IMG/VR virus record: IMGVR_UViG_2541047701_000005
Span: 1 to 39,769 of that record
DNA: 39,769 bases
Strand: one strand, 5' to 3'
Source of the DNA: a virus
Taxonomy: Duplodnaviria > Heunggongvirae > Uroviricota > Caudoviricetes
The notes beneath the pieces were generated by a model that was not told where the DNA came from, ran no database searches, and saw only the letters and a program-made list of their open reading frames with translations. The translations under genes and the position numbers were made by a program. Positions within the stretch are counted from its first letter, which is position 1. Each line of letters begins with the position of its first letter. This document shows, piece by piece, positions 2,580 through 32,239 of the stretch.

Positions 2580-2801
2580 TTAGTTATCAAAAAGTCCGTA
2601 CGTTTCTTCTTCTTCAGGTGTAAGGGGAAGAATCTCTACTCTATCTATAGATACCTTTTCAATGTACCCATGAGGTCTACTTAAAATTAAAGCTCTCTCA
2701 TGCCACAGAACTCCAAGAATGTGATACCTTCCAGCATCGCCTTTTACCCTGGCTCTTCCTTTGATTCTTGGCGGCATAATGCCATATTTTTTCTTTGCCA
2801 T
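2580..2801 (-). CDS. Hypothetical protein (73 aa), last gene of antirepressor operon
   Basis: ATG start overlaps the stop of the upstream Ant gene (TAATG coupling). No recognisable motif. Confidence 0.5.
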   Translation of the reverse strand: MAKKKYGIMPPRIKGRARVKGDAGRYHILGVLWHERALILSRPHGYIEKVSIDRVEILPLTPEEEETYGLFDN

Positions 2802-22633: not shown

Positions 22634-23071
22634 TTATTTCAGGCACTGAGTCCTGATGTACTCCTGCAGGTAGTTAACCTGCGCGGTTATCCTGTCGATT
22701 CCACTTCGGAGACGGTAATAATTGAGTTCAGCATCTGCTGTAAGTCTTGGGCTTTCTCCATCGCCCATGCTGCTGGCTCCGGTCGTTGACTTTGCACAGG
22801 TGGCGGAGACTTGCAGGCGCTTACGACCAGCAGAAACATCAGCACGGAGACTTTCGATAGTCGCGTTAGCATCAGCAAGCTCCTTTGTGTATCTGGCGTC
22901 GAGTTCTGCTACATCACGTTGACGCTTCTGCATGTCAGCGATGATGGATGTGACTTTATCGCGCTGCTCTTTGTAGGTCATGGCGTTATCACGGTAATGA
23001 TTAACCGCCCATGACAGGCAGACGATGATGCAGATAACCAGAGCGGAGATAATCGCGGTTAACCTGCTCAT
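22634..23071 (-). CDS. Rz: Spanin inner-membrane subunit Rz
   Basis: [30 protein letters not shown]... is near-identical in its N-terminus to lambda Rz; start overlaps the endolysin stop. Confidence 0.9.
22687..22878 (-). CDS. Rz1: Spanin outer-membrane lipoprotein subunit Rz1 (embedded in Rz, +1 frame)
   Basis: Embedded ORF with lipobox VVSAC and Pro-rich segment ([16 protein letters not shown]), as in lambda Rz1. Confidence 0.8.
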
Positions 23072-23571
23072 TGTTGCCCCCACAAACAGACTTCACGCTC
23101 AATCTCACGACGGGTCATCAGCCCTTTCCATTGCTTACCGCCAGCGTATGTCCAGCGCCGTAGCTGATCACATGCGCCCTTGATATCGCCCTGGTTTATT
23201 TTGCGAAGAAGCGTCGATGTTCTGAAATTGCCTGTGCCCACGTTATAGACGAACGAGTAAAGAGCGCCGCGCGTTGTTTCCGGTATATCGACTTTGATGT
23301 ACGGGTTAATTTGTCTGGCGACCGTGGCAAGGTCTTTATTCAGGAGGGCTTTGCATTCTGCTTCGGTATACGTTTTACCGAGCATGATGTCTTTTCCGGT
23401 GTGTCCGTGGCATACAGTCCATACACCAACAATATCTTTGTATGGTATGTAGCTGACACCTTCCAGACCATCGTTACCACTTGGTCCAGTGATTAACACA
23501 GATGCTATAGCAATAGCCCCGCCACTTATCGCCGCTATTACGCTATTTCGTAGTGCCGGTGACATTGCCAT
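23068..23571 (-). CDS. R: SAR endolysin (T4-lysozyme-type, phage 21 R-like)
   Basis: 167 aa; N-terminal Gly/Ala-rich signal-anchor-release segment [17 protein letters not shown] and catalytic region [25 protein letters not shown]; near-identical to phage 21 R as I recall it. Confidence 0.9.
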
Positions 23572-23746
23572 TCAATCTGTCCTCGCGCTCTTTGCGCTTG
23601 TAGTACCAGTTGATGCCAAATGTGCCGACAGTACAAAGAATACCAATGATGACAGCCCAGTCATTCAGGGAGAGAATGCCACCCATCGCAGTCAGTCCTC
23701 CGAAGCTGTAACTGAACCATTCTCTGATTTTGTCCATACGGTACAT
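23543..23746 (-). CDS. S: Class II holin (pinholin-like) with dual-start motif
   Basis: 67 aa; N-terminus MYRMDK (Met1/Met4 dual start), two TM segments, basic C-terminus; overlaps the start of the SAR endolysin. Confidence 0.8.
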
Positions 23747-23989
23747 GCTCTACCCCTTCATTGAGGGGATTTGCTCTATTTAATTAGGAATAAGGTCGAT
23801 TACTGATAGAACAAATCCAGGCTACTGTGTTTAGTAATCAGATTTGTTCGTTACCGATATGCACGGGCAAAACGGCAGGAGGTTGTTAGCGCAGCCTCTT
23901 GCCACCCGCTTTCACGAAGGTCATATGTAGAAGGCCGCAGCATAACTATCACTGATGAATTCAGGATAGCCAGTGGCTACGGCTCAGTT

Positions 23990-24070
23990 TGGGTTGTGGC
24001 GGCCGGAATCGAACCGGCTTCCATCGGTGCGCTGCCGATTGCAGTACGCGCGGCGGTCAGCTACATGACT
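23990..24070 (-). other. tRNA-like element (probable degenerate tRNA or tRNA remnant)
   Basis: Minus-strand canonical T-arm GCCGG-TTCGATT-CCGGC followed by CGCCACA-A-CC, and an anticodon-arm-like hairpin ATCGG-CAGCGCA-CCGAT 4 nt upstream of the T-stem. No convincing D-arm or acceptor 5' strand at the expected distance. Coordinates approximate. Confidence 0.3.
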
Positions 24071-24194
24071 AGTATTTTCACTATCGCCTATCTGCTAGCT
24101 CGCCATTGAGATTCACCACAACGATAAGAGCACTGCGCGGCACCTTTCACCAATTCCGCGAGGTCTGCGGGTTCAATGCTCTTACCTGTTGTGC

Positions 24195-24239
24195 AAATAA
24201 AAAAGCCACCGTTGCAACTTAAGAGTCACTAACGGCAGC
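24195..24239 (-). terminator. tR'-like intrinsic terminator downstream of pR'
   Basis: Minus-strand hairpin GCTGCCGTT...AACGGTGGC (with wobble pairs, internal palindrome GTTGCAAC) followed by TTTTTTATTT. Confidence 0.5.
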
Positions 24240-24249
24240 TTACCTTCTA

Positions 24250-24279
24250 ATTATGGCTAAATGGCTAATTGCATGTCAA
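24250..24279 (-). promoter_or_regulatory. Late promoter pR' (-35 TTGACA, 18-nt spacer, -10 CATAAT) overlapping the Q stop codon
   Basis: Consensus -35 hexamer at 24274-24279 and -10 at 24250-24255 on the minus strand, immediately at the 3' end of Q. Confidence 0.55.
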
Positions 24280-24775
24280 GGCTTTTAACAGCAACATGCT
24301 TAACTTTCTCAACACGTTTACGCATTTTGAAAGCATTTTGCATTGGTTGGTACAAAACAAATAACGACGCTTTCAGGATGTCGTCAATTTCGTTTCTACA
24401 GGTTGCCAGTGAAGGTTTTCTCCATCCCTCGCCACCACGTCCACACATCTTGCGTGGCTTTGCAGTCGCGTGATAGTAGGATGCAATTGCTCGCTTAGAT
24501 GAACCATGAGCGTAGTAGCTGAGGAGGATGCCAAAGGCTTTCTTGTCAATGTACATGACGGAATCGACGACCTGAGAAATCAACATTCCATCATCATCAT
24601 TACACATTGGCCTTGTCATAACTCTTCCCGGCTCTACGCTCTCCATGAACTTCGCTATTACGCTGCTCATGCGCTTTTCCAGACGACCTGAATAAACCCA
24701 TGCGCCCCACAGCTCAAGCCAGCCATTCAGCCAATCGTGCTGTTCTTTGGTGAGGTTTAGCTCTCTTATGCTCAT
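24257..24775 (-). CDS. Q: Late-gene antiterminator Q (phage 21/82-type family)
   Basis: 172 aa; ELWGAWVYSGR...TRPMCNDDDGMLISQVVDSV...YYAHGSSKRAIASYY resembles Q proteins of 21/82-type lambdoid phages; directly upstream of pR' and the lysis cassette. Confidence 0.75.
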   Translation of the reverse strand: MSIRELNLTKEQHDWLNGWLELWGAWVYSGRLEKRMSSVIAKFMESVEPGRVMTRPMCNDDDGMLISQVVDSVMYIDKKAFGILLSYYAHGSSKRAIASYYHATAKPRKMCGRGGEGWRKPSLATCRNEIDDILKASLFVLYQPMQNAFKMRKRVEKVKHVAVKSLDMQLAI

Positions 24776-32204: not shown

Positions 32205-32239
32205 TGCTCTTTAACTTCGATGGGGCGCTGACAAAGCGC
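32205..32239 (+). promoter_or_regulatory. nutL: boxA (TGCTCTTTAA) and boxB (GCGCTGACAAAGCGC, P22-type)
   Basis: boxA-like sequence followed 10 nt later by a 5-bp stem / GACAA loop hairpin matching the P22 boxB as I recall it. Coordinates approximate. Confidence 0.6.

Follow-up and report, generated by a model that had tools for sequence, protein, structure and literature searches.

The minus strand of the lambdoid phage or prophage sequence IMGVR_UViG_2541047701_000005 (IMG/VR; 39,769 nt, all of which was analysed and is called the window here) carries the late operon, and ahead of its lysis genes lies a sequence that resembles a transfer RNA (tRNA) in some parts and not in others. This raises the question of what kind of element it is: an earlier note on this DNA had proposed a tRNA gene in decay, a tRNA that carries an insertion, or a structure resembling a tRNA. 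From the fold, its conservation, its mobility and the contexts in which it occurs, as read from sequence comparison, we conclude that purifying selection maintains a defined fold in the sequence, and that the element is no relic but a functional gene or cassette for an RNA. On balance, we favour the reading of an intact cassette, similar to a gene, for a non-canonical RNA of about 130 nt with the shape of a tRNA; this RNA would be processed by the host, released and probably act in trans.

The element, termed the type A module, spans 130 nt (23993..24122, minus strand), as delimited by an alignment (A1), RNAalifold, pair counts and a covariance model. Two pattern scans of IMG/VR returned at least 120 and at least 119 contigs, and yielded at least 57 distinct module versions that share one five-helix, tRNA-like architecture; A1 holds 32 of the versions, the window copy included. 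RNAalifold folds A1 into a cloverleaf-like structure, which comprises an acceptor-like helix of 9 bp, a D-arm, a long arm on a 3-bp stem, a hairpin with a 5-bp stem and a 7-nt loop, and a T-arm. In this consensus fold 97.8% of the cells are paired, against 32–46% when the partners are slid by 1–3 columns, and 14 pairs show compensatory change, against 3–4 in the slid controls; none of 500 shuffles equalled any of the observed measures. G-U pairs account for about 5% of the cells, which favours the fold on the late-sense strand. The 134-nt module is 78–99% identical among otherwise unrelated phages and differs between them by compensatory substitutions. The covariance model built from A1 recovers the window copy with 148.9 bits (24122..23989), this copy being part of the training set. 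It also matches genuine tRNAs in other loci at 16–31 bits, which indicates that the model is truly tRNA-shaped. Folding of the single window sequence did not recover the D-arm or the 5-bp/7-nt hairpin, so that comparative data were needed to find the fold. The match goes far past what chance would give; the string GGTTCGATTCC is present only once in the window.

The acceptor-like helix is formed by GUUGUGGUG (24114..24122, minus strand) and CGCCACAAC (CGCCACA(AC); 23993..24001, minus strand), the first helix of the pair counts. Four of its nine pairs show compensatory change, with GUUGUGGUG/CGCCACAAC, GGUGAGGUG/CACCUCACC and AUUGUGAUG/CUUCACAAU as examples of strands that vary together. The 5' strand includes the TGTGGTG (24120..24114) that the earlier note had named as its best candidate and then set aside as lying about 55 nt too far upstream; this distant strand is the true partner. 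The D-arm, which that note could not find, was likewise revealed by comparison. It reads A-UCUC / AAUGGC / GAGC-U (24097..24112, minus strand), with the stem and loop (U)CUC-AAUGGC-GAGC at 24111..24098 and one mismatch in the window copy; across the family this second helix is 99.4% paired, the consensus is GCUC-AAUGGC-GAGC and the GG of the loop is invariant. The elements that had been recognised from the start, namely the T-arm, the acceptor-like 3' segment and the 5-bp/7-nt hairpin, were all located on the minus strand at the sequences given for them. The T-arm GCCGG-UUCGAUU-CCGGC (24002..24018, minus strand; helix 7) shows compensatory change in three of five pairs, with the stem variants GCAGG/CCUGU, GCAUG/CAUGC and GAUGG/CCAUC, the loop UUCGA(U/C)U throughout and a closing G-C pair. 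The module is directly followed by CCA (23992..23990, minus strand).

Between the D-arm and the T-arm lie two further arms. The first is an extra arm of about 55 nt (24041..24095, minus strand; helices 3 and 4), in which five of seven pairs show compensatory change. It consists of a 3-bp basal stem (GCA/UGC), an internal loop with the invariant segments AUAG and GCGCGUA (24051..24045), a covarying upper helix and an apical loop of about 20 nt, and its inner hairpin occurs in 36 distinct sequences. The second is the hairpin AUCGG-CAGCGCA-CCGAU (24023..24039, minus strand), which has the dimensions of an anticodon arm and the position of a variable arm, and which is near-invariant also in copies found without using it as a probe. 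Its loop lacks U33 and a purine at position 37, as had been noted before: CAGCGCA has A at 33 and C at 37, and is invariant in the family. Either of the two arms could be the equivalent of the anticodon arm. Judged by junction order, it would be the long arm, with the hairpin in the place of the variable arm, as in class II tRNAs; judged by size, it would be the hairpin, and the long arm would have been inserted at position 26. The GCGCGUA segment (24045..24051, minus strand) is self-complementary (CGCGCG) and also complementary to GCGC in the hairpin loop (24032..24029), and could form a second intermolecular contact or a pseudoknot. A pseudoknot between GCGCG (24051..24047) and this loop GCGC is unsupported, both segments being invariant and the three single variants uncompensated. 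A K-turn in the internal loop of the long arm was also considered, and the consensus does not fit one.

Compared with a canonical tRNA, the module thus has a T-arm with a 5-bp stem, a 7-nt UUCRANY loop and the closing pair G53-C61, and a D-arm with G18 and G19. It has no anticodon arm with U33 and a purine at 37, and in place of a 7-bp acceptor helix, a discriminator base, CCA and a length of 70–95 nt it has 9 bp, 130 nt and a tail that varies with the context. ARAGORN predicted no tRNA or transfer-messenger RNA (tmRNA) gene in the window, and never called the module there or in more than 60 related loci; nothing in the whole window reached an Rfam gathering score. At E ≤ 10, the Rfam matches in 23700..24400 were tmRNA (20.2 bits; gathering score 47) and the chance hits SNORA40 and ctRNA_p42d, with the tRNA model (RF00005, gathering score 29) below the 20.2-bit tmRNA hit. 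The tmRNA match (RF00023) lies over the T-arm, the 3' strand of the acceptor helix and the end that resembles CCA, and so concerns the tRNA-like domain of tmRNA. Unlike tmRNA, the module has a full D-arm, no tag reading frame and no pseudoknots, and 316 model positions are skipped in the match. The earlier note had regarded silence of covariance models, together with the lack of a stable small RNA, as speaking against a tRNA-like element; the calls are indeed absent, but it does not follow that the region is unstructured, and their absence only shows that the module lies outside the curated families. Public annotation over the module is spurious or partial in ON470589/ON470594, MH321493 and PQ186186, with labels such as 'polyubiquitin-A', a 'tRNA-Ser' of 58 nt and, for small frames on the opposite strand, 'hypothetical protein'. 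The 'tRNA-Ser' of one GenBank record consists of the last 58 nt of the module and is a truncated call without a D-arm. The 3' half of a tRNA as found at attP-type sites was considered and rejected, because the 5' half is present and covaries. A protein-coding reading of short plus-strand open reading frames (23973..24068 and 23996..24109) was rejected on account of the compensatory substitutions in the helices.

These results bear on whether the element is what remains of a tRNA gene. A functionless relic of the tRNAs of lambdoid late operons would explain why the slot is shared with real tRNA genes, why no tRNA finder calls the module, and why the window copy has a 7-nt loop without U33 and R37 and a mismatch in the D-stem. 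Drift would not, however, give 14 compensatory pairs, pairing at the observed level and 78–94% identity across unrelated phage groups in a family of this many versions; moreover, the 'insertion' is itself a conserved, covarying arm, and the homologues are not one recent clone but six lineages with different arms. We therefore find decay scarcely credible. Of the readings proposed at the outset, the tRNA-like structure and the tRNA with an insertion agree with the acceptor helix, the D-arm GG, the UUCGAUU T-arm and the conserved extra arm.

The apical loop of the long arm contains a further conserved feature, the self-complementary hexamer ACUAGU (24068..24073, minus strand; columns 52-57 of A1). 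These columns are self-complementary in all 32 sequences, which use six words (ACUAGU, UCUAGA, GCUAGC, UCGCGA, ACCGGU and UCUGGA), the pair types being UA16/AU13/GC3 for the outer pair, CG32 for the next, and UA22/GC7/UG2/CG1 for the inner pair. No other six-column window of the arm with varying sequence does likewise; the other windows that are self-complementary in more than 50% of sequences are the near-invariant GCGCG segment and one word of a single lineage. A six-base palindrome is unable to fold on itself, and the CGCG and CCGG variants are unable to pair with the invariant CUAG beside the D-arm, which makes intermolecular pairing the simplest reading. The covarying hexamer thus suggests that the RNA may form kissing-loop dimers. 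With this six-base word in an apical loop, which changes and yet stays self-complementary, the module resembles kissing-loop dimerisation signals such as the dimerization initiation site (DIS) of human immunodeficiency virus 1 (HIV-1) and the self-assembling bacterial RNAs ROOL, GOLLD and OLE (PMC12286853). The module differs from these systems in that its loop has about 20 nt instead of 9, the RNA is far smaller than ROOL or GOLLD, and the putative dimers are deduced from sequence.

The distribution of the module argues for a mobile unit. In a megablast search of phage records, eight lambdoid phages, HK75 and vB_EcoP-611R6 among them, matched over the whole stretch; the search also gave a sharply bounded 143-nt piece (24135..23993) that is 94% identical in about 100 Salmonella Skatevirus records, which share nothing else with the window phage. 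More distant copies, with 78–81% identity (blastn), are carried by Pantoea phage PdC23 and by two further phages of Salmonella. The window version is present in 146 of 5426 complete Escherichia coli genomes, where it is always chromosomal and never annotated. A 19-mer scan of genome contigs gave mostly chance hits in G+C-rich genomes, no more than three of which were upheld by the covariance model. The model also confirms copies in Klebsiella pneumoniae and Enterobacter, and together with the Pantoea phage copy these extend the range to the Enterobacterales.

Sorted by their flanks, 124 type A copies fall into three contexts. As in the window, 76 copies lie in a late leader behind a hairpin termed P1, which is described below. 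In another 22, the module is placed between nutL and the N gene of lambdoid phages; locus L127, for example, has lambda boxA and boxB and an N protein that starts MDAQTRRRERRAEKQAQWKAANPL. In these N-leader copies the closing helix is 11 bp longer beyond a bulged A, with 96.5% of the cells paired and compensatory change in five of the 11 extension pairs, and the whole stalk of 20 bp with its one bulged A is 98% paired. The window has P1 (13-19 bp) abutting the 9-bp helix in place of the 20-bp stalk. In the third context, comprising 24 copies, the module stands behind a variant P1 and before an intrinsic terminator, and lies between two terminators; Rfam finds STnc100 80 nt beyond a type A copy there. 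The encoded 3' tail is CCAA in 56 of the 76 late-leader copies, and ACCA, as a portion of the stalk, in 20 of the 22 copies in N leaders. Many loci have real tRNA genes next to the element, those of Skatevirus phages included. In phage Skate, P1, type A and a tRNA-Ile gene form a unit that runs opposite to the structural genes around it and is preceded by sigma-70-like promoters; this unit is an RNA-only operon. The N leaders of L144, L190 and L196 hold tandem arrays, in which type A follows about 120 nt after a different element, called type B, or after a 71-nt tRNA-like sequence, which in L190 is called tRNA-Ser(UGA) by ARAGORN; each unit of these arrays is flanked by ...guuuugG and ACCAaagcauuuc. 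The window itself has boxA-like sequences GCTCTTTAA and CGCTCTTTAT at 32206 (plus strand) and 30086 (minus strand), which are probably nutL and nutR, and its own N leader has no type A module, the covariance model giving only one hit in the window.

The contexts also bear on a possible role in cis, in which module and P1 would set the amount or timing of lysis-gene or N expression and the excised piece would be functionless, as is usually assumed for the lambda N-leader hairpin. Such a role would fit the constant sense orientation in leaders of two antiterminated operons, the homology of the flanks to those of the lambda hairpin, and the retention of the closing helices whatever the cargo. Yet the module is conserved in the RNA-only unit of phage Skate, with a tRNA-Ile and no mRNA after it, and also between two terminators, and both contexts argue against a purely cis role. 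In addition, a mere stuffer would not keep the T-loop, the GG of the D-loop, GCGCGUA and the covarying palindrome in three contexts. We consider a leader structure acting only in cis rather unlikely.

The behaviour of the slot itself shows how the module is exchanged. P1 is a 13-19 bp hairpin directly after tR' with near-invariant strands, a pattern found in at least 120 viral contigs. In the window its 5' strand is CACAAC-AGG-UAAGAGCAUUG (CACAAC-AGGUAAGAGCAUUG; 24174..24193, minus strand; paired with 24135..24117), its 3' strand is CAGUGCUCUUAUC-GUUGUG (24117..24135, minus strand), and the apical insert between them, insert 1 (24136..24173, minus strand), is hypervariable between phages: the inserts are of 30-200 nt, with unrelated sequences between the invariant strands, and the insert of the window is found again in phages that have another module downstream. 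Covariation of P1 is seen in four versions, namely the lambdoid one, GGUAAUGGCACU/AGUGCCAUUACC (19 of 19 positions paired), GGAAAUCGCUUUG/CAAAGCGAUCCCC and GGAGAGAGUAU/AAGUACUCUCUUC. The last six bases of its 3' strand, GUUGUG, are shared with the acceptor helix of the module, and are complementary to two CACAAC words, one upstream at 24193..24188 and one downstream at 23998..23993; in L163 all three words change together (CACAAU / AUUGUG / CACAAU). Since these bases can pair upstream or downstream, P1 may be a processing site or a structural switch.

At 126 P1 loci, the position after ...CCGUUGUG is occupied by type A in 24, type B in 46 and the lambda version in 10, and otherwise by at least 25 other sequences, and by a real tRNA-Arg(UCU) in L011 and L081. 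Nearly all of these cargoes end in a strand complementary to GUUGUGGUG. Type B consists of two hairpins with the complementary loops GCUGA/UCAGC and the compensatory variants GUCGA/UCGAC and ACUGA/UCAGU, and by this complementarity looks like an imitation of the D/T elbow. L051 and L120 carry two complete units of P1 plus module in tandem, in which ACACAACAGG of the second comes immediately after the 3' CACAAC of the first, an arrangement that resembles an array of cassettes. Hairpins resembling T-loops (for example GGTTCGAATCC and GGTTCAACTCC) occur in the P1 inserts of L009, L017, L028, L099 and L100, so that T-loop motifs recur in the first slot too. A hammerhead-like string is present in the 200-nt insert 1 of L105 (CUGACGAG...CGAAAC; CCTGACGAGTCC...GGACGAAACGC), where Rfam gave no hammerhead hit at gathering score. 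Directly upstream of P1 in L068, Rfam isrJ, a Salmonella island small RNA (sRNA), matches 2710..2786. This is the position of the short pR'-to-tR' transcript, and IsrJ thus appears to be a 6S-type leader RNA of a Gifsy-like late promoter.

Such exchange between conserved flanks could also reflect a feature of the DNA only, that is, recombination boundary sequences at mosaic joints or a protein-binding palindrome with no role for RNA. The cargo is indeed swapped in cassette fashion, and in the CUS-3 record precisely this variable stretch is flanked by two annotated 'boundary sequences', bsq4 and bsq3. Against this stand the G-U pairs, which make the helices strand-specific, the maintenance of pairing while the sequence changes, which neither a protein site nor a target of homologous recombination needs, and an orientation that always matches transcription and the adjacent tRNAs. 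A purely DNA-level explanation is in our view very improbable; it is nevertheless compatible with an RNA function, as conserved flanks can serve both.

Three known systems share features of this slot. Phage 933W has the tRNA genes ileZ-argN-argO at the 5' end of its late operon. Genuine tRNA genes have been described at the 5' end of lambdoid late operons in phage L (Asn/Leu) and Sf6 (Asn/Thr) (PMC8022706). The module resembles such genes in its slot between pR'/tR' and the lysis genes, its strand, the UUCGAUU T-arm, the GG of the D-arm and the acceptor-type closing helix, and the tRNA-Arg(UCU) of L011 replaces it precisely after ...CCGUUGUG. It differs in its length (130 nt against about 76), its acceptor helix (9 bp against 7), the lack of a U33/R37 loop and the extra arm of about 55 nt.

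The second system is the lambda hairpin between nutL and N, described in the literature as the RNase III site that relieves autorepression of N. Kameyama in 1991 and Wilson in 2002 are said to have found that RNase III cuts this N-leader stem and so relieves the repression of N translation. The N-leader copies of the module share with it the flanks gcuuugGGGUGUG...CACACC-A-CCAaagc and a long stalk with a bulged A. Unlike the module, the lambda cargo is an irregular hairpin and has no T-arm, and the window module is in the late leader behind P1. Lambda has cargo in both slots, the N-leader hairpin (L228, 35380..35500, minus strand) and a late-leader module (L229, 44780..44940) of the form GUUGUGCUG...CAGCACAAC-CCA, both closed by helices homologous to that of type A. 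We know of no described function for the lambda late-leader module.

The third system is the sRNA family STnc100 (RF02076), with PasD. A preprint links STnc100 to PasD and places the Pas/STnc100 sRNAs in the late leaders of Stx phages; it does not describe a tRNA-like module (bioRxiv 10.64898/2026.05.13.724894). These sRNAs share with the module the phage neighbourhood, the closing helix UGGUGAAU...CACCA and a hairpin that abuts the 3' strand (STnc100 consensus GcaUGGUGAAUCC...CCGGGAGGCACCCGGCACCAu.gC). The equivalents in the window are GUGGUGAAU at 24119..24111 and the T-arm abutting CGCCAC, a resemblance at the superfamily level only; RF02076 gave no hit in 23700..24400 at E ≤ 10, though the model finds its own members in L130 and L163. 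Unlike type A, STnc100 and PasD lack a T-loop, a D-arm and the long arm; they have an intrinsic terminator at the 3' end and are reported as base-pairing sRNAs of the Hfq type. The comparison shows that at least one curated sRNA family, STnc100, is a further cargo of the same slot. The lambda N-leader hairpin, the late-operon tRNA genes and STnc100/PasD thus seem to be interchangeable cargoes within a single cassette system whose closing helices are conserved.

This relationship raises the alternative that the module is itself a base-pairing regulatory sRNA like those known from the slot (STnc100, PasD, AgvB and AsxR), with the tRNA-like part as scaffold or processing handle and the loop as a seed against host mRNAs or sRNAs. 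Pointing this way are the closing helix shared with STnc100, 80 nt from one type A copy, and the occurrence of Pas/STnc100 sRNAs in late leaders of Stx-type prophages (bioRxiv 10.64898/2026.05.13.724894). In the window, however, no intrinsic terminator or U-tail, the usual handle for Hfq, directly follows the module; it is followed by CCCAAACUGAGCC, and a distance of 90 nt separates it from the first hairpin downstream that has a short U-run. The only variable loop retains self-complementarity and not a fixed seed, and the invariant segments are G+C-rich and structured. The antisense RNAs C4 of phages P1 and P7 and CI of phage P4 are matured by RNase P, and so lend this alternative further support. 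We regard it as quite improbable.

The same antisense RNAs, together with the mascRNA of MALAT1 and the stable RNA species 1 and 2 of phage T4, are tRNA-like RNAs excised from longer transcripts by tRNA enzymes. In these RNAs, as probably in the module by analogy, a tRNA-shaped fold within a longer transcript recruits RNase P or tRNA 3' processing, and a small stable RNA results. They have no sequence or covariance-model relation to the module, and Rfam gave no C4 hit in 23700..24400 at E ≤ 10.

Taken as a host-processed, tRNA-shaped RNA, the module would be transcribed only when Q reads through tR', and its D-arm and T-arm would form a tRNA elbow. By analogy with the lambda N-leader hairpin, the sole experimental support for a part of this enzyme, RNase III may cut the long double-stranded stalks; the tRNA-like end would be matured by RNase P and by trimming at the 3' side. 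Cutting would sever the pR'/tR' leader from the lysis-gene mRNA and free a stable tRNA-shaped RNA, two of which could pair tip to tip through the palindromic loop. The freed RNA would most likely act in trans on a host factor that recognises tRNA shape. Processing, dimerisation and function in trans are inferences, whereas the fold with its conservation and covariation, the cassette behaviour and the contexts are seen in the sequences.

Several points weigh against this reading. Action in trans is its weakest step, and the whole case is built on comparative sequence analysis. The 9-bp acceptor helix is a non-standard substrate for RNase P, and an encoded CCA depends on the context, with none in the Skate copies or in those between two terminators. 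In the window copy a G to U change at 24111 breaks one pair of the D-stem; it is seen in two of the 32 aligned sequences (the window and the identical locus L053) and is the sole deviation of this copy from the consensus structure. The single-sequence fold is no more stable than that of shuffles (z = 0.36 and z = -1.85 in two runs). Many copies are recent horizontal transfers, so that the cell counts overstate the number of compensatory events that arose independently. No variation is seen in the AUCGG/CCGAU hairpin, partly since it was used as a search probe, and it hence lends no support by covariation. Finally, the palindrome is significant only in the position-specific test; a looser one, for a palindrome anywhere in the loop, is not significant, as 51% of shuffled loops pass it.

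The surroundings of the module conform to those of a lambdoid late operon on the minus strand. The Q gene (24775..24257) lies upstream of a pR'-like late promoter, TTGACA-18-CATAAT (24250..24279), which matches 11 of 12 consensus positions and is just 3' of Q. The tR' hairpin, GCUGCCGUU...AACGGUGGC followed by the U-run UUUUUUAUUU (24196..24239), was read from the sequence and from the annotation of HK75, which is 98% identical over this stretch and has pR' and Tr' annotated at the corresponding places; its Tr' ends exactly at the start of the match. The genes for the holin (23746..23543), endolysin (23571..23068) and Rz (23083..22634) follow. The placement of the element between pR'/tR' and the holin gene, proposed from the sequence at the outset, is thus borne out, and its true extent is larger than was then given, the module reaching to 24122 and P1 to 24193. 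The hairpin 90 nt downstream of the module, GGCAAGAGGC...CCUCCUGCC followed by GUUUUGCCC (23865..23903, minus strand), is conserved with lambda (GGCAGGAGG...CCUCCUGCCGUUUUGCCC) and resembles a terminator with a short U-run. It is not in the terminator-scan list, and could be the 3' end of an RNA derived from the leader.

The known part of these findings is a tRNA-like phage RNA in a slot for tRNAs and sRNAs; unexpected are the extra arm, the covarying palindrome and a cassette system shared with the lambda N-leader hairpin. No earlier description of a tRNA-like RNA in lambdoid leaders was found in the literature searched, and mention elsewhere is possible. Tentatively, and with considerable doubt, the results can be drawn together in a broader picture, in which the leaders of the two antiterminated operons of lambdoid phages, like those of ribosomal RNA operons, would launch structured cargo RNAs on stalks that RNase III and RNase P can cleave. 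Type A would then be one of these cargoes and a class of phage RNA not described before, a tRNA mimic that is cut out, maybe completed with CCA, dimerises tip to tip by way of its covarying palindromic loop and binds or titrates a host reader of tRNA shape (a defence nuclease, a modification enzyme or the translation apparatus, for example), and that spreads between temperate and Skate-type phages as a 140-nt cassette.

For annotation, the lesson is that the absence of a tRNAscan or ARAGORN call does not equal a pseudogene. The module is present without correct annotation as an RNA gene in the E. coli genomes counted above and in about 100 Salmonella phage records. If the RNA is made and stable, three systems that have so far been treated separately, the lambda N-leader hairpin, the late-operon tRNAs and STnc100/PasD, would be linked. 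A tRNA-shaped RNA with a dimerising arm would also offer a cheap experimental handle on phage tRNA mimicry towards the tRNA-recognising machinery of the host. On the same condition, the leaders downstream of nutL and tR', which are among the best-studied regions of phages, would hold an unannotated family of structured-RNA genes.

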